Origin: Chlorokybus atmophyticus
Taxonomy: Eukaryota; Plantae; Mesostigma and Chlorokybus algae
DNA length: 64,000 nucleotides
Assembly: GCA_009103225.1 (NCBI GenBank)
Contig: RHPI01002533.1
Span: forward strand, 69,793 to 133,792
Direction: 5' to 3'
Below, in pieces: positions 4,779 through 64,000 of this stretch. The translations under genes and the position numbers were made by a program. The notes under the pieces were generated by a model. The model did not search any database and was not told the origin of the DNA. It saw nothing but the letters and a program-made list of their open reading frames with translations. The stretch's first letter is position 1, and every line of letters starts with the position of its first letter.

Positions 4779-9076
<4,298 letters not shown>

Positions 9077-10646: not shown

Positions 10647-10985
10647 TGTAAAGAGACTAGAGGGGGTGTGCCCCCTCCTCCCTTTAATCCCCTACCCCAA
10701 CACCACCACCAGCCACGACGCCACCGCCGCCGCCGCCAGGGGAATCCGCCGGAGCAGAAGATCCCCTGGCTATGGCGGCCGCTGCGTTAGCAGCGCCGCC
10801 ATACGGCTGATATCGACATGAGACTCATGTCGATATCAGTGTTACAATTAAGTAACACTACATTAGGGCCTTAACACTAGGTTAACGGCCCTAATATGGC
10901 TTAATAGACTGTATAATCCTGTTGGGACCCTTATTTAATCCTAAATAAGGGCGGGGAACCTCTATGGAGGTAGCACACCGTTACA
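10647..10985 (-). repeat. 3' LTR (339 bp)
   Basis: Direct repeat of 17183-17528, differing by 3 substitutions and one 7-bp indel on manual alignment. Confidence 0.97.
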
Positions 10986-10999
10986 TTCCCCCCCACTTA
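10986..10999 (-). promoter_or_regulatory. Polypurine tract
   Basis: Minus strand reads AAGTGGGGGGGAA immediately before the 3' LTR TGTA. Confidence 0.85.
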
Positions 11000-11107
11000 G
11001 GTTTCAATGTCCTCATTGAAGGGTTAGCAAAGCCCCACCACGAGTAAAGAAACGAAAGCAGTGAGAGAACCAGGGCCGAAACGGTAAAGATGTCTGCCAG
11101 CACCCTT

Positions 11108-14100
11108 TTACCGTTCGCGTGTGGACACCGTACTCCAGTACCCCCGAAGAATCTTTTGGCAGTTGGTAAGATTCCTTTCGGGCTCCCATGTATTGTGTTC
11201 AACACCATACCCTTTCCATTTCACCAAGTAAGACGGCGCGCGTCCGCGCCGAGGCCTACGATGACTTAGGACTGCTTCCACCTCATACTCGAAAGTATCG
11301 TCGCCATCCACTGCAACGGGGGGTGGAGGAGGTTGAACCCGACCGTCAGAACGATACGGTTTCATTACACTCACGTGAAACACATTGTGAATGCGTATTG
11401 ACTTTGGCAATTCCAAACGATACGCGTGAGTGCCGACCCGATCAATTACCTTGAAAGGGCCTATCCAGCGAGGGAAAAACTTGCGGGTACCCACTCCCTT
11501 AATGGATATGTTTTTGGTACTTAAAAGCACCGAACAGCCCACATCGTAGCTGGCCTCTCTACGATGCGCATCAGCATGGGCTTTTTGTCTGTCTTGCGCT
11601 GCGCGCAGACAGTCCTTTGCCAGCGCTAGCCTATCCTGCATGGCCGAAGCCATCTCGCGTGCTGCAGGTACGCGAGTTATGTCGGTAGCGGGCAACTTGA
11701 TGTTCGCAGGACTTAGTGGATGCACTCCGTAGTTCAAGAAAAACGGAGTTTCCTGCACACTCTCTTGCCAAGCATTGTTAATCGCAAACTCAGCCATTGG
11801 GAGATAGATATCCCAGTCAGACTGGTTTGGACTCACATAATGCCGAATGGTTTCCTCAATCACTTGATTGGCGCGCTCTGTCTGACCATCCGTTTGTGGA
11901 TGATAAGCTGTGCTCATGTTCTGCTGAATATGTAAGAAGCTGCATAGCGACTTCCAGAACTGAGACACAAATCGCGGATCGCGATCAGACACAAAGTTGC
12001 GAGGCAAACCATGCAACTTAAACACAGAGGCGACAAAAACCATCGCTAACTCACGGGAGCCTATTTCCGTGCGGCAAGGGACGATGTGAACCATTTTTGT
12101 TAAACGGTCCACAAAAACTGCAACCGCTGTGTGCCCTAATGCTGTCTCAGGGAGCTCAACAATCAGGTCCATACTCACACTTTCCCACTTGCCATCAGGA
12201 ACAGGCAAAGGTCGCAGCAACCCAGCGGGTTTCTGACGTAACGGTTTGTCACGCTGACATTTGTCACACGTGTCAACATATTGCTTTACGTCAACAGGCA
12301 ACGATGGCCACCAGTACAACTGTTGCGCTGCCTTAGTAGTCTTGCGACCCCCAAAGTGCCCAGCGTACGGTGGATCGTGTACTTCAGCTATGCATTTCAT
12401 GCGCAACCCAGCATGGTTAGGTATCACCAAGCAGGCGCCCATATAATACAAGTTGTCTCGTTTGTTAAGCTGTTGCACATTCCCTTGCATCGAGAACCAT
12501 GGGTCCAAAATATACCCCTGTAAAACAGCTTGTACAAACTCATCATTAGGAGGCAATGTACCTTGCGTCGCAAGCAAGTGCGCACGCATAACTGCCAACA
12601 ATGACGGACAGCGACTCAAAGGATCTGCCACATTGGTTTTGCCCGGCCGGTATACCCATTCAAAAGTAAACCGCGACAGAAACTCATTCCAGCGAGCTTG
12701 CCTACGCGACAAGTTTAGCTGTGTTGAGAAGTACACCAATGGGTTGTGATCAGTCACTACTGTGAACTGAACTCCTTCCAAGTAGCATCGCCAAGTTTCA
12801 AGAGCATGCACTATACCCAGCAACTCTTGCTCAGTAGTAGTGTAATTCACCTCTGCTGGGATGAATTTTCTACTCTCATAAGCACATGGCCTGCTATCCT
12901 GTAGCAATACTGCACCACACCCTAGGGTGGAGGCATCGCTCACCACAGTGAAGCGCTTATCCCAATTTGGCAGTGCCAACACTGGTGCTGAGGTTAAAGC
13001 CAGCTTCACTTGTTGCATAGCAGCTTCCTGTGCTGCTGTCCAAGAGAATGGGGCATCTTTTCGCAATAGTTTTGTTAAGGGCATCACAGCCGTAGAGTAC
13101 CCCATCATAAACTTGCGAAAATAGTTTGCCAACCCCAAGAATGATCGCAACTGATGGATATTCTTTGGTTGAGGCCAATCCTTTACCACTTGCACTTTGC
13201 GAGGGTCAGGTTTGACACCCGCACCACTCACAATATGCCCCAAGAATGGCAACTCTGTCTTGCCAAAGTCACACTTTGGCAAGTTGGCAAACAAGCGATG
13301 TGTTCGCAGTAAAGCAAACACCGCTTCCAGATGCTTTCTGTGCTCCTCTTTTGTTTTACTGAAGACAATGATGTCATCCAAGTAAACCATAACATGCTTG
13401 CCAAGCATGTTATCAAAGATCTTATTCATTTCCTTCTGAAACACTGCAGGTGCATTTGTCAATCCAAAAGGTAACACTTTGTATTGATAATGACCTAAAG
13501 GTGTTCTGAATGCTGTCTTGTAAACATCAGAAGGGTGAATACGGATTTGATGGTAACCGCTTGTCAAGTCTAGCGTACTGAAGTACGCATTACCCGACAG
13601 TTTATCAAACACATCATCAATCCGTGGTAACGGGTATCGATTCTTTACCGTAATCTTGTTTAGAGCACGATAATCTACACACATGCGCAATTTCCCATTC
13701 TTTTTCATCACAAACAAGATGGGTGCGCCAAAGGGTGAAGAACTCGGTTCAATCAATCCCTTTTCCAATAACTCTTTGATTTGAGTTTCCATTTCCCCCC
13801 TCTCATTGGGGCTCAGCCTATATATTGGCCGAAATGGAGGCTCACTATCAGGAATCAGTGGTATGGTGTGTCCGACACCTCGATCAGGGGGTAAGCCTGG
13901 CAACTCATCTGAGAATATGTCCTGATACTTTTCAATGATGTCTGCAACACCTGCCGTACTGCCTGGCACAAAGTCATCAGATGACGTTAAGTGCACAAGG
14001 AAAGCCGGTGTGTTTTTACGCAACGCACGCTTCACCTGAAGTGCACTGAGAAGCGCAGGGTCTGTTTGCTTGTGTTCCAAGCTATGCGACCCTTTTACAG

Positions 14101-14866
14101 ACAACGTTACACGCTTACGACCCTTTTTCACTGTGCACAACCGTGCACCAGTATCCAATGTCATTTTAACATTGTCCTGCCATTCCTGTCCTAGTACCAC
14201 ATCAACACCCATTATGTTGATGGACACCACTATGAAGGTGAGATTGGCATGATAATTACCAATCTTTACCTTCATTTTGATTTCTCCTTTCACTGGTAAC
14301 GTACCCCCAGCACCGGCAGCTGAAAATGCTGAGGGTTTACACGCTACTTTATTGCGCACAACCCATTGTTCCTCAATAAAATTGTGCGTTGCACCAGTGT
14401 CAATCAAGAACGAACTGGTTATTCCCTGCATTGTGCCACTAAATGTCCACAACAGAGGCACAACCCGTCCTTGAAATGTAGCCAAGAGTCCGTGACTAAT
14501 GCGAGGGTTGAGTAAAATTGCTGACAATCGCACTGTCCCTGTTTCACGCTTGCTAAATTGCTTTAACACAGTTCCCCCTCGAGTATGTTTCAACCATGGG
14601 CCATGATACTTAGGCACCATTATTACCACACTCAAAGTTCTGTGTTTACTTTGCAACTCAGTCAAAGTGTGCAACACATTGGTAAGCATGTTAAATTCCA
14701 CATATACCAACACACAAGCATTCTCTTCCACTTTTGCAACGTCAAAAAGTGGCAACTTGCTATGTGTTTGCCATGCGTGTGTCATTACAAGCACTTGGGA
14801 CAGCTCATCAAACCAGTTTGCTAATAACACAAGCAACTGGCCATCAACCACTTTTACATCAGTCAC
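11108..14866 (-). CDS. pol: Pol polyprotein: extra N-terminal domain, aspartic protease, RT, RNase H, integrase, chromodomain
   Basis: 1252-aa open frame: FLIDTGATHNF; RMCVDYRALN, LPFGLTNAP, YLDDII; SDAS and ELLGIVHAL; HDPPYAGHFG...CDKC, SMDLI, SDRDPRF, QTERANQ; YEVEAVL...YLVKWKGYG...NTWEPERNL. Confidence 0.97.
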   Translation of the reverse strand: MTDVKVVDGQLLVLLANWFDELSQVLVMTHAWQTHSKLPLFDVAKVEENACVLVYVEFNMLTNVLHTLTELQSKHRTLSVVIMVPKYHGPWLKHTRGGTVLKQFSKRETGTVRLSAILLNPRISHGLLATFQGRVVPLLWTFSGTMQGITSSFLIDTGATHNFIEEQWVVRNKVACKPSAFSAAGAGGTLPVKGEIKMKVKIGNYHANLTFIVVSINIMGVDVVLGQEWQDNVKMTLDTGARLCTVKKGRKRVTLSVKGSHSLEHKQTDPALLSALQVKRALRKNTPAFLVHLTSSDDFVPGSTAGVADIIEKYQDIFSDELPGLPPDRGVGHTIPLIPDSEPPFRPIYRLSPNERGEMETQIKELLEKGLIEPSSSPFGAPILFVMKKNGKLRMCVDYRALNKITVKNRYPLPRIDDVFDKLSGNAYFSTLDLTSGYHQIRIHPSDVYKTAFRTPLGHYQYKVLPFGLTNAPAVFQKEMNKIFDNMLGKHVMVYLDDIIVFSKTKEEHRKHLEAVFALLRTHRLFANLPKCDFGKTELPFLGHIVSGAGVKPDPRKVQVVKDWPQPKNIHQLRSFLGLANYFRKFMMGYSTAVMPLTKLLRKDAPFSWTAAQEAAMQQVKLALTSAPVLALPNWDKRFTVVSDASTLGCGAVLLQDSRPCAYESRKFIPAEVNYTTTEQELLGIVHALETWRCYLEGVQFTVVTDHNPLVYFSTQLNLSRRQARWNEFLSRFTFEWVYRPGKTNVADPLSRCPSLLAVMRAHLLATQGTLPPNDEFVQAVLQGYILDPWFSMQGNVQQLNKRDNLYYMGACLVIPNHAGLRMKCIAEVHDPPYAGHFGGRKTTKAAQQLYWWPSLPVDVKQYVDTCDKCQRDKPLRQKPAGLLRPLPVPDGKWESVSMDLIVELPETALGHTAVAVFVDRLTKMVHIVPCRTEIGSRELAMVFVASVFKLHGLPRNFVSDRDPRFVSQFWKSLCSFLHIQQNMSTAYHPQTDGQTERANQVIEETIRHYVSPNQSDWDIYLPMAEFAINNAWQESVQETPFFLNYGVHPLSPANIKLPATDITRVPAAREMASAMQDRLALAKDCLRAAQDRQKAHADAHRREASYDVGCSVLLSTKNISIKGVGTRKFFPRWIGPFKVIDRVGTHAYRLELPKSIRIHNVFHVSVMKPYRSDGRVQPPPPPVAVDGDDTFEYEVEAVLSHRRPRRGRAPSYLVKWKGYGVEHNTWEPERNLTNCQKILRGYWSTVSTRER

Positions 14867-14875
14867 GACGTAATC

Positions 14876-16351
14876 CTATTCAACCTTCTTGGCCTTGCCC
14901 TTCCCCTTGGTTGGGCAGTTCTTTGCAATGTGGCCAGGCTGATGACAGACGTAACAGGTGCGAGCCGCAGCAGGCGTAGCACCACCAGCAGGTGTGGCAC
15001 TAGTAGAAGGACCATATGTCTTCGCCTTCTTTGCCAAGTGTGCACTCGGATGAGGGAAACGCTTCCCTCCCACCCCTGGCGGTTTGGCCGAAACTGCCAC
15101 ATGTGACTTGTCCTGCACCGCCGTGTCATCGTTGTATAGGTACACGCTCAGCTTCTGCAACTTGGCCAAGTCCTCGGGAACCCAAGGCAGTCCCGTTGCC
15201 GTGTTGTACTGCAGTTGATCACGCACACGCGCATCCAAGCCGCGCTTGTACAACTCAAACTGCTCGGCCTTGTCAATAGGCATGAGGCCGCTGTTGGCAC
15301 GACCCACCAATGCCTGGAATTCTTGCAGATAGGCTGAAGCCGCCCGACCATTCTGTCGCAACTTGCTGAGCTTGTTACGAGCCTGAGTAGCCGGGTCCAT
15401 GCCACCATAGCGTTCCGTCAGGAACTGAAACAGTGCCTCCACTGTTTTGGTAGCACCGTCCTGTGTCTGCCTCGCCCACTCGGCGAGAGCGTCAGAAGGC
15501 ATGAGCAACTCAGCAACAGCAATGTGTTCACCAACGGGGCGTCTCAATGCTGTTAAATAGTGCTCAACAGTTACCACCCAGTCGTGGATACTGACGCTGC
15601 CGTTGGGCTTGAACTTCTCAGGCTTATTCAGTGCTGTAACCGGCAGCCCCGCTGATGCTCCAGCTGCTGAAGTAGCACCCGCCACCTGTTGGCGCAGCGC
15701 CACCAACTCAGCCTGCATAGCATCGAGGCGTGCCGTCAACTGCACTCGGCCAGTCAACTTGTCTTCCAAGTTAGGTCCCAAGTACCAGAACACGTCCTTG
15801 CAACGCTGTGAGGTTTCCACTCCCAAGTTGGCCAAAGCCTCAAACGCCATTCGCTTGCCTTGGTAAGGGGGAGGCTTATCGTAAACAGCCATCAGAGCAG
15901 CCACCTTCGGATCACCGCGCACGAGTGGCGGAACATTGTTCGTCAGCTCGTGCTCGAGCATGCGGATCACCATCTCCTTGCTTGCGCGAGGAAGTGTGAC
16001 AAAGTCCGTCTCATAGCCATCACGAACCTTCTGAGCCCATGCATCCCATGTTTCCTTGCCAAGCTGTGGGTTGGCATCAAGCAGAGCCTTGCGCTCCTGG
16101 GCATACTTCTCAATTGCCCCGCCAATGACACTCTGAGAGTCAACTGCAGGTGGTGCCATTTCAGCGTTTACTGCAACTGGTACACTCTGAGCAGACTGGT
16201 CGGGAGAAGCATCGCTCTCTTGCTTGTCTCCCTCCTTCTCACTGACGGTCAGCTGATAGCTCTCACTCGTGTCAGAGTAATTCACTTCCTCTTCACTTGA
16301 TGGCTCATATGATGTGGACTTCTCCACATCGTCCCCTCCTTGGTCAGACAT
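14876..16351 (-). CDS. gag: Gag with CCHC zinc knuckle
   Basis: Open frame from ATG 16351 (MSDQGG), gag-like capsid region (KPEKF...W, LRQNGR...YLQEF), and CYVCHQPGHIAKNC; TAG stop at 14878-14876. Confidence 0.9.
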   Translation of the reverse strand: MSDQGGDDVEKSTSYEPSSEEEVNYSDTSESYQLTVSEKEGDKQESDASPDQSAQSVPVAVNAEMAPPAVDSQSVIGGAIEKYAQERKALLDANPQLGKETWDAWAQKVRDGYETDFVTLPRASKEMVIRMLEHELTNNVPPLVRGDPKVAALMAVYDKPPPYQGKRMAFEALANLGVETSQRCKDVFWYLGPNLEDKLTGRVQLTARLDAMQAELVALRQQVAGATSAAGASAGLPVTALNKPEKFKPNGSVSIHDWVVTVEHYLTALRRPVGEHIAVAELLMPSDALAEWARQTQDGATKTVEALFQFLTERYGGMDPATQARNKLSKLRQNGRAASAYLQEFQALVGRANSGLMPIDKAEQFELYKRGLDARVRDQLQYNTATGLPWVPEDLAKLQKLSVYLYNDDTAVQDKSHVAVSAKPPGVGGKRFPHPSAHLAKKAKTYGPSTSATPAGGATPAAARTCYVCHQPGHIAKNCPTKGKGKAKKVE

Positions 16352-17169
16352 CTGCCCAAGAATATAAGCCGTCAATAGTTGAAGTTTGCAAGTGCACAAA
16401 CACACGAGTTGTGCACTGCAAAAGTGTCAAAATCACTTGATTTTGTCTCGTCAAGTTTCAAGTGTGTAACGTGGAGTATACAGCTCAAACAAGAGCTCCC
16501 CACACACTTCTCAACTAGACACTTGCTTAGAAACAAACCGCACGCGAATTCACGCGGCGGTTCACAAGTTACAGCTTGTCAAAGTTTGCACTTTGTACAA
16601 CTCAACTCAACCCACAATTGTAATTGACACACAGGGTGCCAAAATCTCGTTGAATCAACCCTACAGGGTGATATCAGCGAGTTGTGAGTTGTGAGTCTGA
16701 TACTGGCCGCACAGAATGACTCTGGCGGCCTCACCGCACTGACTGGCGGTAACGACAGCCGATGTTGCCACCGGACTGTCTCACAAGGGGGGTCAAACCC
16801 TTTACACCACCACGAATCCACGTGGTGGCCAGCACAAGCACACACAAGTGGTTATATATATATAAATCACTATGTGATGTGCTGGGCATGCAATACTGAG
16901 GGGGAAGGCTGCCTGAGTGGCCGCCTCCCCTACACGCAAGCTAACAAGCTCGGCTAGGCTAGGGCAGGGCAAGCTAGGCTATGCAAGGCAAGGCAAGGCA
17001 GGGCTAGGTAACTAGCCTACACCAGCAACAGCGTTTCAATAATAACAACAACAACAACAACTACCACCTAATAACTACCACTAGTTGCCGCCGCTGCAGT
17101 CGCCTGCCGCCTGCCGCCGCCGTCGCCTGCCGCCTGCCGCCGCCCCTTCCACAGGCTCTTCACGCCCGT

Positions 17170-17181
17170 GCTCCGATACCA
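17170..17181 (-). promoter_or_regulatory. Primer-binding site, tRNA-iMet type
   Basis: Minus strand TGGTATCGGAGC right after the 5' LTR; the canonical plant iMet PBS is TGGTATCAGAGC. Confidence 0.85.
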
Positions 17182-17182
17182 A

Positions 17183-17528
17183 TGTAAAGAGACTAGAGGG
17201 GGTGTGCCCCCTCCTCCCTTTAATCCCCTACCCCAACACCACCACCAGCCACGACGCCACCGCCGCCGCCGCCAGGGGAATCCGCCGGAGCAGAAGATCC
17301 CCTGGCTATGGCGGCCGCTGCGTTAGCAGCGCCGCCATAAGGCTGATATCGACATGAGACTCATGTCTCATGTCGATATCAGTGTTTCAATTAAGTAACA
17401 CTACATTAGGGCCTTAACACTAGGTTAACGGCCCTAATATGGCTTAATAGACTGTATAATCCCGTTGGGACCCTTATTTAATCCTAAATAAGGGCGGGGA
17501 ACCTCTATGGAGGTAGCACACCGTTACA
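17183..17528 (-). repeat. 5' LTR (346 bp)
   Basis: Direct repeat of 10647-10985; carries the extra TCATGTC duplication. Confidence 0.97.
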
Positions 17529-20901: not shown

Positions 20902-23714
20902 TCATTGCCAGTGCGCTAAAAGCCTCCCTACCAGCTGGTCTGCTTGTTTCCCAGCATCCGAGTGCAACTCAGCCAGCGAATGGAGTGTGCCCAACACGTC
21001 CTGCTTCACATGTGCCGGTAGGACTTCAGGCTGCATGTCGCAAAGCTGAGCAAACCATGGCAATATGCTCTCTACAAAGCTGCTCTGCCGCGTGAGTTGC
21101 ACAAGTGCCGTCACGATCTCGACCGCGACGTCGATGGAAAGCTGGTGCAAGATTGGACCGGTCCGCCCGATCAACCTCACCAACTGAAAATCGTCTTTGG
21201 TTTCCGCAACAATCGTGTACGCCTCATTTAACCTTGAAGCCGCTAGGTGCTCCATGATGTCGCTCCAGCTGTGAGAGCTCGCTGGAGCTGGCGTTGAGCG
21301 TGTTGTGACACTGCCCTTTATGATAGTGCTGGCACTAGTGGGTGGCGTGGGCGGGAATTGCCCGACCCATGAGCGCCGCAACCCCGGCCTTGTTGGCTTG
21401 TTGCACTCAACCTCATAGGGCGCTGATGTAGAAGGAAGGGCAGCATCATTCTCACTGTATCTGCGTGAGTGTTGGAGCGGGCGTTCATCGAATGAAATGT
21501 CCAGGCTCGCGCTGAGTGGAGAAGAGTAAGAGCTGCGTTGCGACCGCGCAGACTGCAATCCTGCAACTGTCGTTTCCAAGCGCGATACTCGATCTGTCAA
21601 TGCTGCCATAGCCGGTGGCAAGTCCGACAGCATCTTTATCATCCGTTGTTGCTGCTCCTCAATGTGCTCGAGGCGCTCATGTAAAAGTGCATCACCATTA
21701 CCTGCCACCGCAGCAGCATGCATTGGTGTGGAAAGTTCCCCAGCATTGTGTATGGACCCTTGCGAGCTGTCAGGTGTGTGCTGCTCGGGTAGGTCATGAC
21801 CTTCAGAGGCCTCATATCTGCTGAACTGTTCAACACCTGAAAAACGGGCATGAGACTCGGGGGTGGAAGGCGAACCATTGCTCAGAGGTGCTGCTGCTTC
21901 TTCTGCTGAGGCAAAGCTCGAGGACGAAGTCTCCGCTTGCAGCCTGCCATGCTCTTGTGCATCCCCGTCCTGTGCATGCTCTGATTCTGAACGTGCATCA
22001 GACCGTGGGCTGGAAGGGAGCAAAACCTCAACATGCTCGGTGGGTGATGAGGGCGACTGCGCCCAAGACTGAAAGAAGTTGGTGTTCTTTTGCTGAAGGC
22101 GCAAGTTGCTTGACCTCGAAGACTTCTCTGTCGCCAACTCCTGGGCTGCACAGAAGCATAAGCCTGAGATTTGCTTGTGTGTGCAGAGACCTGTCTTTCG
22201 ACATGGTGTCCTTCAGAATGTTCTCAATCCACATACCATCATTATTCCGCAACGGGCTGCCTTCCACTCCCCTAACAACTGGATGTGCCTCAGCAACAGC
22301 ATCTCTGACTGGTTTGACCTATGAACAACAAGGGCACAATCAGTTTGTGTGGGACGACACTGGATGCAGCGCTGTTGTGTGCCAGTTGCAAGCACCTTGT
22401 CAAAGCGGCAGAGTTCAAGCGCATCTAGCACTTCTTGCCAGTGCGGTCCAAAACGAGCGCCATTGGTTTTGGCAATCGCACTGAGCGCTTCGACCGCTGC
22501 CTTGCGCACGTTCCAGTCAGCATGCTTCGCTTTCTCCGCTAGCACGGGTACGAACTGGCCAATGAATGGCGTAAGAGAGTCTCTGCACTTCTGGGTACGC
22601 AGCATATGCTACAGTCAGTCATGGAAGCGCATATCATGGGCTCACTGCCGGCCTCACATTGTACATTTGGTAGCGTACTAAATGTTAAAAGACCTCACAA
22701 TGACAACATTCCCTCTTACCATTACTAGCTTATCGTCAAAATAACCATCATGTTGAATTGGTGAGGCAACATACCTCTGCAAGGCATTGAACGGCTTGCA
22801 GCAGCTGTGCTTCCGCTTGAAAAATTGCACTATGAAGCAATCTGACCATCCGCTGGCAGATCTTGGATAGACTCCCATCGTAAGAGCACTGTGAATGGGA
22901 GATGACAGCAGCCAGGGAGCTGGCCGCCGCAATCTGCACTTCCTTGTTCTGTTCACTAAGCGCCTCAAATAGAGGCCTGTAGAACACAACGGATGCAGCC
23001 ATTGAGGACGTATCCCTGGGGCCGCTGTATTGCATGATGCTGCCGAGCGCCTCTGCGCACGCAGCGCGCACAGCAGCATCAGGATCCTTGAAGCGCTTGA
23101 CTATGCTGGTTACAATCTTTGACGTGTGGGAAGTTATACCCTGCCCATGTACACGAGCAATCTCGCTGTACAGCAAGATGACTTCGCGCCTTGCTGGAGG
23201 TTTTTGTGTGCTGTCCACCTCGTACAAGCAACTGCGCAAGATACAATACCTCGCTGACAACCATGCTGACAATCGACTCACCAATAGCGTTATCAACTTC
23301 AATAGATATTGGCATATACTGCAAGTACACAGTAGGCAACAGCAGTGCACTTACCTAAGCACATTTGGCATGGTGTCCGCACCAGCAGCTTCAATAATGT
23401 CACGCAGTTCACCAGCAGCAGAGCGTTTTGTATCCCGATCATTTAATCGGGTCAGTGCCTACACAAGAAGTCTTTGTTTCAACATGGAGCAACGAAAACC
23501 ACATTGCAGAGCAGTGAGAAGCCCTCATCACCTGCAGAACTCTATTCTTGAGGTCAACCACAGCAGCATTGGCGAGCACCCGATTCCCACTGTTGACACT
23601 TTTTGTACGTTGCAGACCGGGTGCACTGACCGCGCGCAGCGTATGTGGCTTGTGTCCATTTGCACCAGCTTCAGCCATGGCACCGAAATCAAACCGCTGG
23701 TCACCACTGACCAT
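20902..23714 (-). CDS. TOR1: TORTIFOLIA1/SPIRAL2-like microtubule-associated HEAT-repeat protein, multi-exon
   Basis: DLKNRVLQ, ALTRLNDRDTKRSAAGEL, ARREVILLY, KIVTSIVKRFKDPDAAVRAACAEALG, LAEKAKHADWNVRKAAVEAL, LELCRFDKV, coiled coil, and C-terminal WSDIMEHL...AYTIV...DDFQLVRLIGRTGP...LPWFAQL. Start codon uncertain; an upstream exon may lie at ~24837-25017. Confidence 0.8.
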
Positions 23715-25693: not shown

Positions 25694-27104
25694 ATGACGA
25701 TGTCGGCGGCGGCCCTCCGATTGATGTCCGATCTGAAGTCCATCAGACAAGAGCCTCCTGAGGTACGGCTGGTTGCCTCCTGTGTGTATTGAATGCAAAC
25801 AATTGCTTAGCGAGCCTCTCTCAAGGTTGAATGGAGACAATCACCTGCTTGCCAGCTGTGTGCCCTTTCGTGTGAACCAACGCTCATGTGGATAGTTGGG
25901 TGGGTGAAACGTGGTCCTGGTCGCTGTCAGCTGTTCGCAGCTGGTCGGTGTGTGAGGGTGGGGNNNNNNNNNNNNNNNNNNNNNNNNNNNNNNNNNNNNN
26001 NNNNNNNNNNNNNNNNNNNNNNNNNNNNNNNNNNNNNNNNNNNNNNNNNNNNNNNNNNNNNNNNNNNNNNNNNNNNNNNNNNNNNNNNNNNNNNGGGGGG
26101 GGGTGGGGGGGGTAAGCTGACATCAGTGTGTCATGCTGCGGGTTTCCCAGGGCGTTCCCCTTTGCAATCTTAAGACCGGTTATTGTTGCTGGCACTGAGC
26201 CTAGGGTGACGCAGGGTTGCAGCGCAAGTCCTTCCTCAGAGGATAACTTATTTGTATGGTCGGCCACCATATTTGGGCCGGACGAGACACCTTGGGAGGG
26301 TAAGCATGGATGTTGTTGTGTAGCCACCAGGAGTGCGTTTCATCATTGATCAGTCATACGTCATCATCATAGCTTCTCTGGACGTATGTATCAGCCGTAC
26401 TTGTATGTGTGAACACGGTCTCATGCAAACTGCAGGTGGTGTCTTTTCCCTGCGCATCACGTTTGGTGATCAGTACCCAGAGAAGCCGCCCAGAGTCCGA
26501 TTCACTTCAGAAGTGTTTCATCCAAATGGTAGGCAGCATATGTCAGCGCTGCTGTTAGTGCTGGGTTGAGGATGCCGATACTCTCTACTTTGTGTCTCGT
26601 TATCTGCCTTTCTCGCGTGTTGCTGGAGTAACTTTTGTGGTTGCTGACACGTGGTGCTCTTGTCGGGGCAGTCTACAGTGATGGCACGCTGTGCATGGAT
26701 ATCATTCAGGACGCCTGGTCACCGTGCCACAATATCTGCACGCTGCTGACTTCCATTCAGGTTAGAGCAGTTGTCAATGCCAGCACGGTTGTCATGCTGC
26801 GCAGTCACTACGTGCGTGCTGTTGTTCTGTACTTCGTTTACAGTCATCCAAGCTAGCTTTTTGCGAGTATGAAGGTTGATGAGTGTAATGGTACTGTGCA
26901 GAGCCTGCTGACTGATCCCAATCCTGCTAGTCCTGCTAACCCTGAGGCAGCACAGCTGTACCAGAACGATCCAACAGCTTATAGCAAGTGAGTTGTAAAC
27001 GATGTCTGTAGCAGTACCAGGCCGTCTGTGACGTGTATATGTGCTAAGTGGACTGCTGCAGGCGCGTTCGCCGCTGCGCGCAGAGGTCGATCGAGTGCTG
27101 CTAA
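25694..27104 (+). CDS. UBC2: Ubiquitin-conjugating enzyme E2, RAD6/UBC2 family, multi-exon
   Basis: [23 protein letters not shown]|[29 protein letters not shown]|[30 protein letters not shown]|[30 protein letters not shown]|[20 protein letters not shown]; TAA at 27102-27104. Confidence 0.92.
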
Positions 27105-52512: not shown

Positions 52513-52719
52513 GTCAGCAACAAGCAAGACAACACTGCTGCTTATGCTTCTAGTGTCAGCTCTGTGCTCTGTGCTTGTCGTTGTGGGCGGTGGCGGCGGT
52601 GGCGTGAGGGTGTGGTTGGTGGAGCTAGCTGCGAGGTGAGCTGGCAGGGCTGGCTATAGCTGGTCGGGGCAGGCTGTGGCGTTGGCCTGGCCAGCGCGCG
52701 CGACACGTAACTCGCACAC

Positions 52720-54553
52720 ATGCGGGTGTGGCTGGACTGCGATTGCGGGGTAGACGACGCGCTGGGCATCCTGCTTGCTCTCTGCCTGCCTGAGGTGGGT
52801 ACACTGGCGTGTGCATGTGTGGTACATAGCTGCATGACTTTGCGCGATAGTCAAGCTCAGAGCGTCGACTTTCTTGCCACACAGGCTTGCCTGAATGCTT
52901 GCACTGAACGCCTGACACTGGCACCTTCGTGCATGCTGCGCAGGTTGAAGTGGTTGGCATCTCCTGCGTTGCTGGCAACGTTGGCGTGGAACAGGTCAGA
53001 GAACCTGGCATACGTTTGACACTGACAGGCAGCTTGTCGTGATGTGCGTGCAAATGGAAGCGTGCGTGAGCTTACAGTGCATGCAAGACGTTCAGTGTGT
53101 ACATCTGCATACACGCTTGATGTTGCTGCATGCAACAGTACGCTTGGAGCAATCGCAAGTGGCTCGCTTAACATTGCAACAGCTGCACAATCCATGGCAA
53201 TTGTGTTTGTTGCCATGCAGGTGGCAAAGAATGTGGCACGCATGCTGACACTAGCCGATCGCGTAGATGTTCCATTCTACATTGGCGCCAGCGCCCCGAT
53301 ACTTGGCCCAAACGGCATCGGCAACAACGGGGTAAGCACGCTAGTCATCGATTGACTGGCGTTATTCAAGTCAGTGTGAAGGCGTGAACTGAAGTTGTCT
53401 TTTGGCAGTGGTTTGGAAAGGACGGTCTCAATGATGCAAAGGATGCGTCACCGCACCCACACTCGGTGACAGCGTCTCCGTCTCCGGGTTATGCAAGTGT
53501 TCGGTTGGTTGAGGAGGCCAACAAGGAAGACAGCCGAGACCTGGTTCTCATCGCAACCGGGCCGCTGGTATGCTGACTCTGCGATGTAACGCATGCAAGC
53601 CCCAATGTTGGTTATTGACACATATACAGGTTACATTGCACTACAGCATGCTAGTTGTGTACTGCATTACCGCCAGTGGGTGCATTGACGCTTGCTGATT
53701 GTGATGCTGTGCATCATCAGACCAACATTGCACTAGCATGCCGTCTGGACCCTGCTTTTCCCTCGCGTGTTGGACGGTTTTGCGTGATGGGTGGTGCGGT
53801 TGAAGCCCCGGGCAACACGCCCAACTCATGTACAGCAGAGTTCAACTTCTTATGCGATCCAGAGGTCAGTTTCTCAAGCTCTGCAGTTGGCATTTACACC
53901 ACTTTGTAACAAGGCAGTTCAATGCCAAAATGTGGTTGACACTCTGCTGCAGGCAGCATTCATCTGCCTACACTCCTTCCCAGACACCAAACTGCTGAGC
54001 ATCGACTGTGCAGAGAAGCACCCTTTGTCATGGCAGTGGTTTGAGCAGTGGATCAGCAAAGACACTGCCAAGGCAAGAGTACACAACGCTTTGCTCTTGA
54101 ATAGAGCAGCCTTCGCTGCACTTGATGCATTGAATAATTGCAACATATTGGTGCAGGCAGCCTTTGCATACGCAATCATGTGGAACTCCCGGGAGGCTGC
54201 CAGGGCTAGCAACGAGCCCGGTTGGGTTGCATGGGATCCGCTTGCTGTTGCGGCTGCGTTGATACCCGGGGCAGTGCTCACATCTACCAAGTTCTATATT
54301 GATGTGGAGCTTGCAGGAAAACACACAAGAGGGCAGTGTGTTGTAGATTGGAAAGGGATTATGCGAAAGGAGGTGAGCTGTCTGAGCACGCTGTGTACGT
54401 GTCTGCACCATGTTCTCCACTCAGTTGCAGATATGCTTGGCTGTCATGGACTGAACCTGGCTGGCGTTGTCCTTGTGGCAGCCTAATGTCACATTGGTGA
54501 CATCAATGGACGACAAGCTCTTTCTGCACTGGATGGACGTTGCACTTGAGTGA
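52720..54553 (+). CDS. Inosine/uridine-preferring nucleoside hydrolase, multi-exon
   Basis: MRVWLDCDCGVDDALGILLAL, ISCVAGNV, WFGKDGLND, LIATGPL|TNIALA, VMGGAVEAPGN...AEFNFLCDPE, WDPLAVAAAL, IDVELAGKHTRGQCVVDW; TGA at 54551-54553. Confidence 0.93.
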
Positions 54554-54649: not shown

Positions 54650-54935
54650 CCGTATTTGTGCAAATACACCCCCCACCCCCCCCATTACAACACCCCCCTT
54701 TGGGGGAGGGGGGGGCTTTGTTTGTAACCCCTTTCACGGGCGAAATACATCCCTAATACAACACCCCCCATTTATGTTTTTTTTTTTTTTTTTTTTNNNN
54801 NNNNNNNNNNNNNNNNNNNNNNNNNNNNNNNNNNNNNNNNNNNNNNNNNNNNNNNNNNNNNNNNNNNNNNGGGGGGGGGGGGGGGGGGGGGGGCGCTTTG
54901 TTTGTAAGGGGGGGGTTGTATTCGCACAACTACGG
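54650..54935. mobile_element. Putative Tc1/mariner-type MITE spanning an assembly gap
   Basis: Imperfect ~25-bp TIRs CCGTATTTGTGCAAATACACCCCC / GGGGGTTGTATTCGCACAACTACGG, flanked on both sides by TA. The interior is low-quality sequence and N. Confidence 0.5.
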
Positions 54936-55679: not shown

Positions 55680-56400
55680 CATCACATTGGGGGCCATGTC
55701 TATAAGTTCTGTACATGAAGGGCCTGCAGCAAGTTGCTGCGGAATCAGCTTCGTCAGCGGCACGCTTGCCAAGCTTTAAATCCTCGTAAGAACAGATTGG
55801 TTTGCAGCAGACTATTCCGTTGTGCAAAAAATTCCACGTCCTTTACACCGCATTCACGATCTTACCACCAGCGGGCCACGTGACGAGTAATAGCCCATTA
55901 TCCATGCGCCAAGACAACAGCGCAACAAAGCGGAGCCAAGGAGTGGGCATTTGATTGCTTGCAGTCGCGAATGAAACATGGGTCGCTTCTTATGTCACCT
56001 GATGGTTGTAAACAACCAAACCGGTGATTGGGCCAACTCCAGCTTGGTGTGCAGTAACCATTGCCAGCAGCCTTCAACAAGGCTGATGGAACCACCAAGT
56101 GCGCAACTAATGCTTTTGTTAATACACGTTAGATACAAAATTAAAAATAACTTTTGGAAGGCTGACATTCAAAACATCGTGGGGGCCTTAATGTCATCCT
56201 TGAGTTCTCAAGCATTGTACTTCAAGAAGCCTTTGCTTATGTCCAAAATGTCTGCCCGGCGTGCCAGCGCTTCAACAACCCAACCTGGCTCGTTTATGGC
56301 GTCAATTATCGCGATGTCATGGAACTATGTATCCAGCTTAACACAATTAGCCAACTGCGAGCGGTTGCTTAACAAATCTCGTCATATGAACAAGGGTATC
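55680..56400 (-). pseudogene. Possible highly decayed pogo/DDE_1-type transposase remnant in an AT-rich island
   Basis: Minus-strand fragment GIFAQRNSLLQTNLFLRGFKAW loosely resembles the pogo LPPNTTSLLQPLD..IRSFKA motif. Many stops; weak. Confidence 0.3.
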
Positions 56401-57350
56401 GATGTCATACGCGCACGCGTGCGCATACATACGCACACATACGCATACACACTCTATTCAAGCATCCAACAGGCACAACATTGTAAATATAAAAGTTACA
56501 GTTTTTTTTTAGAGCCGTCTACACCTGCTTTGAATCAGTTAATATCATAATGAACCAACGACACATGCACATGCGTGAAACTTATAGCATGCAACATTGG
56601 CTTCAATGACAAAGCAATTACGACGATTAGTGATTATTTACATGTCCATCAAGACCAATAGGTAACATGCATACATGCATACTACACAACAGATGGATTG
56701 GGGCCAATCAATCAAGCAAGCAAGCACAACACATTTAAGCTCGATAATACAGCACTTGTTGCTTGGGTTTGTTTTGGCATCAAGCAAAACAAAAACGATG
56801 GGTTGGGGGGCCCCACCAAGTTTTAGCTAAGTGCACTAGCTATAGACCGGGGAGGGAGGAGTGTGGGCAGAGGGAAGGGGGAAGGGGCAGCGGCAAGCAG
56901 CAAAGGAAGCACCTACAGAGCACCGCGGGGGAGAAGAAGGGATATGTTGGCTATCCACCGCCGCCGCCACTCACGACGACGACGACTGTGCAACTGCTAA
57001 TGCCCCCGAGAGTTTGAGCGGCTGCCCGCGCTTTTATTCCCTGCACGTTAGTCACTCACAACAGGCAATGATCAGGGTTGGTAGTCAAAACGCGCCTTGC
57101 GAATTTAGCAGGGACGCGCACAACAGGGCATCTTCGCAGTGCACATGGAATTGCTGCGAGCTGTGCATTGACTCGACGTATATGCGGGCAATGAATCTGC
57201 TCCCCACACTCACTTACCCATCACTTACCCGTACTTACCTGTTGTCGTTATCATGTGCTGCTTGGTAGATAGGTGGCTGACATGCGTCACCCTGTGCTGG
57301 TCGGAATTGCTGCCTTATCCAATCTATGCACCACCATTACATGGACAAGT

Positions 57351-57720
57351 CAGTCACGCGAACCATAGGTGGTCACAACCGTCGTGACCACCAGTTCATA
57401 GCTCAGGACCACACTCGCGGCCATACGTCCACAGTATGGCACGAACACCACAGCATATATAATCCGCCGTCATTACCTCGTCCATGGTTCGCGAACCATA
57501 CTGGTGTGAATATAACGGAAAGTTACAACCAGTGTGGTGTAAATTTTCAGTGCCAATATGGTCATGACGTTTAAGCCATGCGTGGTGCAGACATTCACGA
57601 CAAGAGCGGCATGACAGTCACACCGTATATGGTCCACCGTCATCACCTCATCCATGGTTCGCGAACCATACTGGTGTGAATATAATTGAGCATCACAACC
57701 CGTATGTCATGACAGTTACA
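57351..57720. repeat. ~170-bp direct repeats each with a perfect 16-bp palindrome, upstream of the DNMT retroelement gag
   Basis: CCGTCAT.ACCTC.TCCATGGTTCGCGAACCATACTGGTGTGAATATAA occurs twice, with the palindrome ATGGTTCGCGAACCAT at 57484-57499 and 57654-57669. A partial copy and the hairpin GGTGGTCAC-n7-GTGACCACC lie near 57368-57392. Confidence 0.75.
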
Positions 57721-58670
57721 CTAGTGTGGCCTGGCGTGCCCCACTCAGTATGACTTGGCAATTACACCACATGTGGTCTTGCATATCATTGCCAGTATGA
57801 TATGACCGTCACACCTGTCATGCCATCTACCCTCGCATGCCAGTCCTTCTCGAGCATGCCTACACCCAGCCCCACGCCCGGGCTACCAGCATGAAGACCG
57901 CGCGAGCCCCAGCCTACTGCTAGCTACTGTACCGCTCATGTAGCATGTAGCTAGGGCTACTTTATAGACCTGCCTGTAGGGACCGCGCGTAGCTGATCAG
58001 TTGTAAGTCTGTTAATGACACATGTGCTATATCGAGTCTTAGGAGATTTCCGAAATAGCATGAGGCCTCGATGTGACCGTTGGCCTAGTGCCCGCGTGGC
58101 ACTGCACAGTCATGATTTGACATGTATAAGTAGGAAGTCACGTCACCGGACTAGCTGGTGACACTGTAAGTGAGTACTAGGAGTACCAAGAAGTAAAGAC
58201 TTTGTTTCTAAAGAGCTTGTGAAGCGACTTGAACTGGAAGCACGCTGCCCCGGTTGCCAAGAATTCCCTTACTGCGTGAGACACGGTGCATGCTCTTGTG
58301 CGATGTGCCTGTCATTGCTGTGAGCTTGACGGTGGTGTGTTGTTTCAGTAGTCAGGGTGTTGTATCCACGTGTTGCACACTCATTCACCTCACTTAACAG
58401 TGTATCATTCTATCCACTCATGCAAAGAACTGTGTCCACAGCACTACCTATCGTAGTGGCTTGTTGACTTACAGTGTCACCCTCTTTGCACAAGTGAGTG
58501 TGTTGCGATCTGCATTAGATAGTGCAGTCTGCACCCAGGGATAGATCGCTGGGCATTCGTTATCATTGTCATCACATAGTGCGCACAAGCACTAATGTGT
58601 TGGGTGGTAACAGCATCACTATAGACGGTAGAGCACAAGCACTCTACCCTTTTACCTCTGGACCAGCTGT

Positions 58671-60510
58671 ATGAGCAGGCCCACCCCGTTCTCCCCAATA
58701 GACGAGGGTGACCTCAGCAGTCGGAGCCCAACCACCAACCTCACCTACGAGCGGACCAGTGACGGGAGCATCGACCGCAGCAGCAGAGGCTCGCGCTCCA
58801 TCTCCAGCTTCACCCCGCTCCACTCTACTCCTCGTCATCAAGCTTCTCCACTATCATCGGACAGCGACGACAACGAGATGGAGTCTTCCTATTCAACCAC
58901 ATCCCTGCGCTTCTCCGGACGTGCCGGCACCACCTCGCTGGATGAGTTCATCATCAAGTTCCACTCCAAGATGCGGCAGAAAGCTCTGAAGAACAAAGAC
59001 TGGTCAGATGAGATCTCTTTCCACATTGCTGCTCAGTATCTTGATCATGAAGCACACGATGTCTGGAAGTCCGTTGCTGAACTGCATCGAGTAGACGGCT
59101 ATGGCGAGCTTGCCAGCACCATAGCATCTGCATCTCTGCACCGTCCAGCAGGTGTCGTTCCACCTGCCACTTCAGTTGCAGTAACAGGCTTGTCCATAGC
59201 TGCAGCTCTCAAGCAGGCAGAGGAGGAGGAACCAGAGTTGGTACTTGTCAACTTTACCCCTGCAGAATTTGAGTCCAAGGAGGCCACAGTCGAGTCCGCA
59301 TCCTTGACCGTTCTGCCATCATCATTGAGGAACAAAGAGCTGTACAGCAAGCGGCAGCCGCAGAGTGGGGTACTCCTCTACCTCCAGCAACACCTGGCTC
59401 TCGTGCAGGAGGCAGCGCTTTCACCCTCGGGTCAGTAGCACTGCGCGCACCAGCCATCACCGTAGGTGCTGCCATCTCTGATTCTCCACTCAAGGACCTG
59501 TACGCTGCCCTGCGCCGCACCTTCCCTTCTCAGACCACCACCAAGGTTGAGGAGCTGAGACGCTTCCGACGCAAGCCCAATGAGGATCCCCTCCGCTTGT
59601 ACTCCAGACTGGAAGGTCTGCTGAAGGACACTGACTACAAGATTGTCAGTGAGGAGGCTGCTGCAGTGATATACGCCAATGAGTTGGATGCTGCTCTGAG
59701 CGAGTCGACACGCCCGACTCCGAACTACAGCAGGCCCCTTGGTTACACCCTCAAAGAAGCCTAGAGACTGCACAAGCCATCCACAAGCGCTTGGTGTATG
59801 AGAAGGCAGTGCTGGACACCAACCGCAGCGCCGCACGGCCTGTAGTCAGCACGACAACTGAGCTTCCTCGCCGCGACCGTGGCCGGGACGCTCCACCAGC
59901 ACGCGACAAAGGGAAACGGTCAGCTCATGCTGCACTTGCTGCCCCTGTGCTGTGTCATCGCTGTGGACGGCATGGGCACTACCAAAAGGAGTGCACCGAA
60001 GAATACTCAACTTTGGTTTGCGACCACTGTCACAAGACTGGTCGTTTGGAGTCAGTCTGCTGGCTCAAGTTCCCAGAGTTGAGGCCCGCCAACAGCTACA
60101 ACCACAACTACTCCGGTGGCTACAACAGCAACAACACTGGAGGCCACACTGGCAACAACTTCAGTGGCTACAACAGCAACAACACTGGAGGCCACACTGG
60201 CAACCACTTCAGTGGCTACAATAGCAACAACACTGGAGCCCACAATAGCAACAACGCTGGTGGCAGTAACAACTACAACAACGCCAGTGTTCGCAAGGAA
60301 GAGCAAGGCTACAGGGGGAAGAATAGACCTCCTCAGCGTAAGGGACCAGAGACACGTCCGCGCGTTGCTGCTGTTGCCGCCAAGGCTTCATCCAACCCAC
60401 CAGCTGATGACCATATGGCAGCCCTGATGGCGCGTATGGCACGCTTGGAGGAAGACAAGGAGCAGGACTACCGCGCCTGCCCGATGGGCGCTGGTGGCTG
60501 CAAAACGTGA
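58671..60510 (+). pseudogene. gag: Frameshifted gag with two zinc-knuckle-like motifs and an N/G/Y-rich repeat
   Basis: LRFSGRAGTTSLDEFIIKF...WSDE...AAQYLDHEAHDVW; after a shift DLYAALRRTFP...ELRRFRRKPNEDP; after another shift CHRCGRHGHYQKEC and CDHCHKTGRLESVCWLKFPELRP. Frameshifts near 59355, 59760 and 60500. Confidence 0.8.
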
Positions 60511-61285
60511 GAGAGACAGGACCACTCCGTCCCGCGTGCAACCATCACGACGAGCACGGGGGGAAGCTGCAACAACATCAGCAGGCACCTCCTCCGAAGC
60601 CACCAGTGGGGCTGCCTCCGCAGCAACAGCCACACCGGCTACAACGTCGACTCCACCAACGTCAGCGGCACCCACTCCAGTTGCACCACAACCTGGTACA
60701 CCGATGGACACCGTGACACCGACACTGGTGAGCACAATGGCAACAGTCGCCATCTCTACCGAATCTGCACCAGCGAGCGGTGCACTTCCCACTGCAGCAG
60801 TGCCTCTGCCCGTAGGCGTTGAGACAACTCTCGCACCACCGACCGGTACCGTCGCAACTGCCACAATTGCCATCATCGAGCCCGCTGTCTCTGCAGCAAC
60901 GCGCGCAGCCACTCTGCCCGCTCTCGACGTCACTCAGGCTGTCCCAACTGGTCAGCAAGCTGAGCGAGCATGAGAGACCGTCCTGCGCGGAGCAGACCCC
61001 ACTACCATCGCCTTCGGTCGGGGGGGGGAGCGCACCACGCGTGTCGCTCGCGATGATCGCGTCTTCCCGCTACCAGAGGTTCACACCCTTCCAGCACTCA
61101 CTCAACACCAACTGGAAGATGAGATCCTTGCTGGCACTGCACCTCCGATGCGTGACAGGGTGTTTTTGATCAGCTACAGCCCACCGGTAGTGTTGGAGTT
61201 GGCCCTGCAGCTGTTCTGGGCGCTGCACAACAACATGCAGACCGCCCCGCACCAGTCTGCACGCATGCCAACCACCACCTTTTAA

Positions 61286-64000
61286 CCCAGCCCGCTGGAC
61301 ACGTATCGGGACCGCCGAGACACCGTCCAGCAGCGCATCGCCGACGCAGCCGACCTGCCTTTGGGCACTGATGAAGCACTCGGACCTCCTACAACCGCTC
61401 CCCTTCATCAGCGCTACCACGCACTGGAACAAGCATATCATTGGCGACAGGATCAAGCTGCCGCCATTGCTGCACGTGAGCAAGCTCTTGAAGCTACGCG
61501 TGCACCAATACCTCAGTCACCAACTACTGGTCCATCCTCCAGCACCACTCCGCTCTTCGTCGAGACCAACTCTGACCAAGCGAGGGCGTTGGCTCAACAA
61601 ACCAGGGGGGTGATCGCCCCGTTGCTGCCTGCGCTGGTGGAGGATCTACCTGAGGACCAAAGGGAGCCAGGGAGGGGCTACCTTACACCACAAGGGTGTA
61701 CACAAAGAGATGGAGCAGGACTGGTTGGAGAGCAACAACTACGCACTGCTCTGTTGCGACAAGCAACCATGCTGCATCGGCAAGAAGGCATCGGACTTCG
61801 GCAGATGCTTGGGATGCGAGACAATGGCAACGCGGCACGCGCACGGTTAGTGACGTGGCTGGTCACCAACCATCCCGCAGTCCCGTTGTTCGCTTTCGGC
61901 GCCAGATTAGCGTGGGTGGACGCATTCCTTCGCTCCATACGGCAAGCCTATGATGAAGTGGCTTCCGCCGCCACTGACACTCTGGAGGGAGCTCTGGAGG
62001 CGATACTGAGTTTGCCAGGAGTGGAGGCAGGACGTCAGCGCAGGCGCATCGCCGCTGCTTACGAGCAGCATGTCCAACAGCCAGAGACCCGCCTCACTGT
62101 ATGCACACGAGCAATAACAGTGCTGGAAGTGGGAGTGGTCAACGGCAGATGGGATGCTTACATGGCAGGGATCCTCAGGGTGCCCACCATCACCCACGAC
62201 ATGAGAGCGCGGCTCCTACGCGCAGTGTACCTGCAGCCCATGCCTCAGAACCATCGCTATATAGACGTGGACAACAATGCGACGGCGACATGGGAAGGTA
62301 CACTAGTCAGAGAGGCAGCCCATGCCGTGCGATGGACCTATGCAGAGGAGCAGGCTGCACGAGAGGCAGTCCCGCAAACACCAGGTCCTCCAGGGTTCCC
62401 GCTACAGCCACTGGCCACTCCTCCTGGCATGACAACAGCTGCACGGAGGGTCAACCCTCCTGCACCTCCACTTGGACAGTTTGCAGCAGCACCTCCAGTG
62501 CCTAGGCCACCACGCGTGTACCAGCAACCGCGACAAGGACGGTTTGGACAAAGCCGAGGACAAGGAGGTCCACAAGATTCATCAGGCAGAGGAGCCCTGG
62601 CTGCCCTGCGGTCAGGCCCCGCAGATGAGAGTAAAGCAACAGTCTCTCCACGCAAGAGGTTCCGTCGCTGCAAGAGGCTGCGCATCAACGCTAATGCAGC
62701 CATGATCGCCAACCAAGGCAAGCACGTGATCGTCAATGGGCGGGCACTCAAATGCGTGATGCTGGACACTGGAGCACAGCCCGTCATCATTGGGCGCTAC
62801 CTCGCACGAGATCTCGGCATCACCAGCGCTGAGCTGCTTCCCTGTCCCTACCAGCTGGACACCGCAACCGGCAACCGCGACAAGGTGCTCGGCCTTACCA
62901 AGCAGGCTGTGAGCATCCGCCTCACCGGACTAAACCCTTCCCACAGCACCGAGATTGTACAAAGGTGTGTGGTCACCGATGCCGGGTCCTTTGACCTACT
63001 GCTGGGACAGGACTGCAACTTCCCTGTCGGCATGGGGATGGACTGCTGGACTGAGCAGGCATGGTTTCGACCGCATTGGGATGAGGATGATGGAGAGGAG
63101 CAGGGATTCCTACCTCTCGAACTGGTGGCCAAGGCCCGCTCGCAACGAAGGTCGGCCGCAGCAGCCACCTACAGTCCTATAAAAAGCTCACGTGTGCCTC
63201 GTGCCCGAACGCAGCCGAGGACAACTGCAACGAGCTCGAGCCTAAACGCTGAAGAGGACTCTCCTACACCGTACGATGAGTCTCAGGAGACTGTCACAAA
63301 AGAAGTGGCCTTTCAGGAGCCATCCGAGCGTCGCTGGAGCGCACAAGTAGCAGCACACATGCTACTGACCAGGCCTCAGCTCACTGCACACTTCCCTGTC
63401 TACAAAGACCAGGCTACAGTGCAGGAGCAGTACCACATAGCTACTGGAGTTGTGGAGTTCCACATGTTCCGCCGACAACAAGGCATCACCGTGCTGGAGC
63501 TGTTCGGAGGCATAGGCAGTGGGCTTGCGGCTGTCCTCAACACAGGAACAACAGTCACCAAGTACCTCTACTGTGACCCTGACCCTCATGCACAGGAGGC
63601 TCTGAGCCATCATTTACGACAGCTGCACCAGCGCTACCCGCAGCAGTTACCGCTGTCGGCACTGCAAGGGAGCCAGAAGGCTCTGCCGCAGGACATCCGC
63701 TGGATTATCAAGGATCACCTGCAGGCAGTCGGCAACATTGACCTGCTGATAGCAGGATGGGAGTTTCAAGGGCACTCCAGGGCAGGCAGAGGCCACGGGC
63801 TCTCTGATCCTCGCTCACAGCTGTTCTGGGAGCTAATGAGAGTCGTCAAACTCCTGCAGACCAGTCAGATCGCTAGGCCCTTGGGCTACATCATCGAGAA
63901 TGTGCACTCCGAGGATGACAAGCGGCATCACGTCGCCAAAGCTTATCGACAAGTATGCTCCTTGCTGGGGCATCCTCTCAAAATCAACGCCGCACGTCAT
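61286..64000 (+). CDS. Polyprotein (3'-partial): unknown domain + retropepsin + C5 DNA methyltransferase domain
   Basis: Manually translated stop-free frame 61286-64000 (905 codons; absent from the ORF track because it has no stop in the window). VMLDTGAQPVIIG at 62756-62794; DLLLGQD; ITVLELFGGIGSGL (motif I, ~63485-63526); IDLLIAGWEFQGHSRAG (motif IV region); YIIENV (motif VI, ENV at 63896-63904). Confidence 0.88.

Follow-up and report, generated by a model that had tools for sequence, protein, structure and literature searches.

The window analyzed here is a stretch of 64,000 nucleotides of DNA from the alga Chlorokybus. Positions 10647 to 17528 (reverse strand) hold a young, whole-looking chromovirus-type Gypsy element without a DNA methyltransferase (DNMT); it has a Gag frame, a second frame for protease-RT-RNaseH-integrase-chromodomain, LTRs of about 340 bases that differ by 3 mismatches and one gap, and a 5-base duplication, CATAT. 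Host sequences include an exon of a TORTIFOLIA1-like protein at 20905–22212 (reverse strand), 100% identical to EukProt jgi/Chlat1/63, whose label probably stands for Chlorokybus atmophyticus in JGI naming, and a spliced gene for an inosine-uridine nucleoside hydrolase (PF01156) at 52700–54480 (forward strand). No tRNA genes were found in the 64,000-nucleotide window. A poly-C tract some 400 bases long and four gaps of N, at 7535–7949, 8782–8902, 25964–26094, and 54797–54870, are likely assembly artifacts.

At the right end of the window lies, on the forward strand, a multicopy element that starts with TG at 57816, within the motif TGTCATG. The summed contig depth of run X1, a sign of a repeat and not a copy number, was 1.2 to 2.8 over the flank at 55903–57708 and 48 to 337 from there to 64000, with the step from about 2 to more than 100 falling within the bin 57709–58009. 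The listed runs with matching sequence included none from RNA, a result that has no bearing on expression. The 5′ terminal repeat, named A (57816–58469, right end approximate), was delimited by this jump, by loose ends of contigs from runs X1 and X2 at 57811 and 58469, and by its start motif, which is the same as in relatives. In the adjoining low-depth stretch at 57300–57813 there are a 67-base repeat, three CA(C/T)GACA motifs, and short palindromes. Its end resembles a diverged copy of the B repeat found in relatives, and the stretch may represent either an old repeat of the B type or a different small element.

Downstream of repeat A, Gag is spread over three pieces in different frames. Piece 1 (58671–59435, frame 3, ATG at 58671 and 58878) and piece 2 (59273–59761, frame 2) match the profile of the relatives' Gag with E 8e-11 and 5e-10, respectively, and are broken by frame changes near 59288 and 59763. 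Piece 3 (59683–60507, frame 1), with a frame change near 60476, carries a CCHC knuckle at 59953–60000, a decayed second knuckle at 60019–60060, and Asn/Gly/His-rich 24-base repeats (repeat family D2) at 60081–60280. The sequence-only reading had placed a Gag with CCHC knuckles here, which is correct for the first knuckle, with a PF00098 match at E 5e-4 just under the cut-off, and less so for the second, in which Arg stands for His. An Ala/Thr/Pro-rich linker in frame 2 (60428–61285) follows and contains two in-frame stops, one at 60971 and one at 61283.

The protease-methyltransferase frame and its decay

A frame of 905 codons without a stop (61286–64000, forward strand) is bounded upstream by the in-frame stop at 61283 and runs off the window end; it was recovered from an ORF listing that allowed open ends. 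Rather than a separate gene with an independent start, it forms the tail of a disrupted Gag-protease-DNMT frame. For its first 465 or so residues (61286–62680), which lie within the multicopy element at the same depth as the rest, no homologue was detected: they matched no Pfam family, and among the 150 of 874 search matches listed no best-scoring stretch starts before residue 463. This stretch between Gag and protease is far longer than the linker of the relatives.

The retropepsin occupies 62726–63013, with LDTGA at 62762–62776, as judged from Pfam and from the alignment with relatives; at residues 481–576 of the frame, PF13650 was matched with E 1.5e-5, above its cut-off, and PF13975 with E 1e-5, below its cut-off. 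The C5 methyltransferase domain follows at 63479–64000, with a match to DNA_methylase PF00145 at residues 802–881 (E 1e-6, 28.8 bits against a curated cut-off of 22). Its motifs stand in the order I, IV, V, and VI, namely, LELFGGIG at 63494–63517, IDLLIAGWEFQGHS at 63737–63778, GLSDPRSQLFWEL at 63797–63835, and IIENV at 63890–63904, and the window stops just short of motif VIII. The single forward frame linking a retropepsin to a C5 methyltransferase and the motif order had both been described in the sequence-only reading, and both were upheld, as was the PF00145 assignment that it proposed to check. Motif IV had been given there as IDLLIAGWxxQGHS; the segment is present, but the residues left as xx are EF, and in the resulting GWEFQGHS a Phe (codon 63764–63766) replaces the catalytic Cys of the window copy.

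Protease, linker, and methyltransferase are all covered by overlapping contigs of other copies, and codon 63764–63766 encodes Cys in 8 of 8 covering contigs from run X1 and in 3 of 3 from run X2. Over 63080–64000, third codon positions hold 25 of the 33 counted differences from these contigs, as would be expected if the frame is under selection. The count leaves aside 4 of 37 rows, two of which also proved to be third-position changes when counted by hand. Among the best-supported differences, 11 of 17 were synonymous. The deeper X1 and X2 contigs vary in length at the frame changes at 59288, 59763, and 60476, so the three Gag breaks belong to the window copy. The contexts of the stops at 60971 and 61283 do not fit the CAR-YYA readthrough signal, and these stops are therefore read as probable decay, not programmed readthrough; neither is present in the 40 differences shown of 379 against contigs of other copies. 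With three frame changes, two in-frame stops, and the catalytic Cys lost, the window copy is probably no longer functional, either in its frame or in its active site, whereas the Cys in all covering contigs and the third-position bias indicate that the family keeps both.

Relatives, domain order, and terminal repeats

A word-index search returned six longer proteins, all with protease and DNMT and one of them from Mesostigma. With HMMER, 874 matches at E 0.001 were obtained among 1.84 billion representatives, and Closterium was among those named in the 150 listed; the first Atlas match of the Closterium homologue was a PF00145 cluster of 57 members, most commonly from Streptophyta. No Klebsormidium-labelled sequence was among the relatives found in the protein and metagenome searches, and none of 14 candidate stretches in viral contigs was a relative of the window element.

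The protease lies directly before the DNMT in 32 of 162 related proteins and RNase H does so in 50, while in 61 the DNMT is the sole domain seen and the remaining 19 are fragments of other kinds. The 50 proteins represent a second architecture, RT-RNaseH-DNMT-integrase-PHD; one of its members, P0083, has a G-patch domain between DNMT and integrase. The protease-DNMT order is common to the window, Mesostigma, Closterium, and metagenome relatives, and in the last of these it continues with RT-RNaseH-integrase-PHD, the full set being carried by loci L001 and L010 according to Pfam. Among the metagenome loci (80 in all, 60 distinct), an RT after the DNMT was present in 39 of the 45 with enough DNA and missing in 6, integrase in 22 of 26, and PHD in 14 of 21. 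The integrase has H2C2 and rve domains with the D, D, and E motifs kept. A PPR-DYW gene adjoins the element in one metagenome locus, which points to a land-plant host of that locus. In loci L052, L053, and L069, the DNMT and part of the RT are missing between protease and RT, and the ends and duplication are kept.

In a DNMT tree of 83 rows, composed of element domains only and including no host DNMT1/2/3/5/6, the two architectures lie on either side of one branch (SH-aLRT 93). They also split in an RT-RNaseH tree of 45 rows, where the support is 92 for a group of 8 rows and 99 for 35 of 36 rows. The split in both trees, which are unrooted and contain DNMT-bearing elements only, fits one capture and one move of the DNMT and may also reflect two captures. 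The window row stands on the protease-DNMT side, the tree placing it no more exactly than that, with a best identity of 48% over 172 columns. The earlier claim of a DNMT retrotransposon in a streptophyte alga agrees with the PF00145 match, the multicopy repeat, the host exon identical to the Chlat1-labelled protein, and the RT, RNase H, and integrase that lie downstream in relatives. Its suggestion of a possibly new lineage is true insofar as the window copy is distant from all rows found, but the copy falls, as one of its branches, within a broad clade of Gypsy elements with DNMT3 and PHD and represents no separate capture. A DIRS-like protein, noted under P0055 and P0184, carries a DNMT of the window-element family after an RT-like part, together with a Dam domain, which indicates that the domain moved between element classes.

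DNMT and RT are kept in one frame in 26 of 40 loci in which RT follows. TAG-CAR-YYA is the only stop between them in 4 of these 26 loci, TAG or TAA followed by CAA-CCC occurs in 10 (some with more stops), none lies between them in 5, and the remaining 7 carry stops of other kinds. UAG-CAR-YYA is described as the readthrough signal of tobacco mosaic virus (PMC2754532), and from the sequence context we infer probable readthrough from DNMT into RT in the relatives. In one land-plant subfamily, a leaky TAG-CAR-YYA would yield the DNMT at Gag level and the RT at a fraction of it. The literature searches found nothing on CARYYA readthrough in retrotransposons.

The terminal repeats of the relatives are split in the order A-coding-B-A-B, as read in five loci (L028, L047, L052, L069, and L078) that correspond to four distinct insertions. 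The A repeat starts with TGTCATG or TATCATG, the first B comes after a G-rich tract, B ends near CACGACA, and two bases lie between B and the inner A. TG/CA ends and a 4-base target duplication (GGTC, AAGG, ACCT, and AAAC) were present in all four distinct insertions with both ends read. The B-A junction was found in 14 of the 21 loci with DNA past the integrase, the pattern having been drawn from those same loci. In the window family, the same CACGACA-nn-TGTCATG junction emerges from the loose contig ends that X1 and X2 show at 57811, and this suggests that the 3′ structure matches that of the relatives.

Type and role of the methyltransferase

The methyltransferase of the window family is DNMT3-like by sequence and by the fold predicted for the complete domain of relative L010, to which the cut domain of the window is 47% identical. 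In a sequence search with the L010 domain, DNMT3A/B/C of human and mouse ranked first and filled the 29 top rows of 49, before M.HaeIII, M.HhaI, and DRM2. The fold, which was predicted for L010 and not for the window's cut domain, had a pLDDT of 90, and the best 32 of at least 500 structure matches were all DNMT3 (best E 1.6e-18). Motifs VIII to X are present in the relatives. The catalytic Cys is retained in 208 of 212 aligned stretches from relatives, the Glu of motif VI in 198 of 198, and the two arginines of motif VIII in 171 of 176 and 170 of 173. Motif IV takes the form E-C-Q in 108 of the 212 stretches, about half of the family, and P-C-Q in 92. An active site kept across the clade argues that the methyltransferase probably serves a need of the element. 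CpG depletion was considered as a sign of self-methylation and rejected for the window element, in which the observed/expected ratio was 0.68, compared to 0.72 in the DNMT-less chromovirus in the window and 0.73 in other DNA, with no loss beyond background.

Taken together, the locus is very likely a decayed copy, represented by its 5′ portion, of a multicopy Ty3/Gypsy-type element in Chlorokybus that encodes Gag, protease, and a DNMT3-like methyltransferase, with RT, RNase H, integrase, and PHD predicted beyond the window. The RT is deduced from the relatives because its expected position is past the window end. In working copies, the methyltransferase would be made within the Gag-protease polyprotein, packed into the particle, and freed by the protease, and it would put CpG methylation on the new cDNA before integration. 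A new copy methylated in this way would resemble host chromatin or resist editing. This self-methylation, proposed by de Mendoza et al. (PMC5890265), appears moderately likely among the possible roles of the DNMT. Through its PHD finger, the integrase would recognize histone H3 tails and thereby guide where the element inserts. The E-C-Q form of motif IV, the 6 loci lacking an RT, and the absence of CpG loss weigh against this overall reading.

Other readings account for single features of the locus. The Chlorokybus family might be non-autonomous or split, encoding only Gag, protease, and DNMT and borrowing RT and integrase; the window does end before an RT, and gene models stop inside the DNMT or past it in Mesostigma (P0007 and P0028) and past it in Closterium (P0031). 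This is improbable, as such proteins of the relatives end at a single in-frame stop with the RT directly after, which explains the models ending there, and as the RT is found after the DNMT in the 39 of 45 loci. An element of the DIRS/PAT type, equipped with a tyrosine recombinase, is still less probable. The A...B-A-B repeats of the relatives and the related DNMT in DIRS-like P0055 with its Dam domain would be expected from such an element, but the window element has a retropepsin and a CCHC Gag, and its relatives carry an H2C2 and rve integrase with D, D, and E and 4-base target duplications.

Two readings concern the methyltransferase itself, and both are highly improbable. The Phe at the catalytic position of the window copy, the absence of CpG loss, and the Klebsormidium domain, which showed no activity in yeast in a result that its authors call inconclusive (PMC5890265), would be in line with an enzyme that is catalytically dead throughout the family and acts as a DNA-binding decoy; against this, the Cys is kept in the other copies, and Cys, Glu, and Arg are conserved in the relatives at the frequencies given above. 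A host DNMT3 gene or retrocopy, lying beside a retrotransposon or caught in it once, would explain why the domain is DNMT3-like, but the domain has no introns, shares the frame of the protease and the repeat depth of the element, and follows a protease in 32 of 162 related proteins. The multicopy depth largely refutes this explanation.

Integration and comparison with known elements

A two-LTR circle opened at a single internal CA-nn-TG site would leave just such an A-coding-B-A-B arrangement, and linear cDNA formed via other strand transfers could also give it. A wider and clearly speculative model, which we regard as rather unlikely, holds that a Gypsy clade dating back to the origin of the streptophytes, with a writer (the DNMT3-like domain) and a reader (PHD), integrates from such a circle. 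Two LTRs, each consisting of B plus A and starting at the polypurine tract, would be joined, and the DDE integrase would open the circle at the internal CA-nn-TG to give TSD-A-coding-B-A-B-TSD; the DNMT, moved once between two Pol positions, would mark the free cDNA circle. A circle-junction route is used by some bacterial insertion sequences, and if the circle model is true, it would provide a retrotransposon with this route. The combination of split repeats, a DDE integrase, and target duplications raises a second, separate question, which is how the element replicates. No paper on a Gypsy element with split direct repeats and an integrase was among the literature matches listed.

The closest described system is KnitGypsy-Dnmt3 of Klebsormidium nitens, in which Gypsy domains are combined with repeats of a DIRS-like kind (de Mendoza et al. 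2018, PMC5890265). It is likewise a streptophyte-alga Gypsy with an intronless DNMT3-related domain, and according to the legend of Fig. 4 its repeat arrangement is DIRS-like, as in the relatives of the window element. The window element differs in its host, Chlorokybus, and in being a dead copy; the comparison was made by description and covered host, element type, DNMT type, and repeats. The window element very probably works like KnitGypsy-Dnmt3 and belongs to the same clade. The capture of the KnitGypsy DNMT was placed in the K. nitens lineage (PMC5890265), and members in Mesostigma, Closterium, land-plant DNA, and Chlorokybus indicate an older or more mobile clade. Later papers repeat Gypsy-DNMT3 as a streptophyte trait (PMC12344493; bioRxiv 10.64898/2026.05.21.726589).

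As far as the literature searches reach, with subscription papers and Repbase outside their scope, Gypsy-DNMT3 elements are described in print from Klebsormidium and taken as a capture within that lineage, and no title on DNMT3 retroelements of Chlorokybus or Mesostigma was among the matches listed. Chlorokybus is a streptophyte of its own class and stands with Mesostigma at the base of the streptophytes. The Chlorokybus member extends the known Gypsy-DNMT3 kind to the deepest streptophyte branch, and together with the relatives from Mesostigma, Closterium, and land-plant DNA it suggests that the clade spans the streptophytes with the active site kept throughout. The question of why a transposon carries the class of enzyme that silences it is thereby made testable.

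Retrotransposon-borne C5 methyltransferases are also described in Symbiodinium, namely, SymbioDIRS-Dnmt3, whose domains showed de novo CG methylation in yeast, and SymbioLINE-Dnmt. These are a DIRS with a tyrosine recombinase and a LINE, respectively, they reside in dinoflagellate hosts, and they are presented as separate captures (PMC5890265). The EpiLTRs of Cymbomonas and Euglena (bioRxiv 10.64898/2026.05.21.726589) are similar in that an LTR element combines a DNMT with a chromatin-reading domain; they differ by a DNMT that is sister to DNMT4 and by Dam and a chromodomain, and the preprint sets them apart from streptophyte Gypsy-DNMT3. Troyka was rejected as kin, its description in PMC12440569 giving CG ends, 3-base duplications, an occurrence in animals only, and no methyltransferase. 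Phygy and Selgy, of moss and lycophyte, are non-chromovirus Gypsy elements like the window element (Neumann et al. 2019, PMC6317226); in a comparison by description only, the account in that paper makes no mention of PHD or methyltransferase for them. Phygy is described as preferring NCGN targets, in contrast to the duplications GGTC, AAGG, ACCT, and AAAC in the relatives of the window element.
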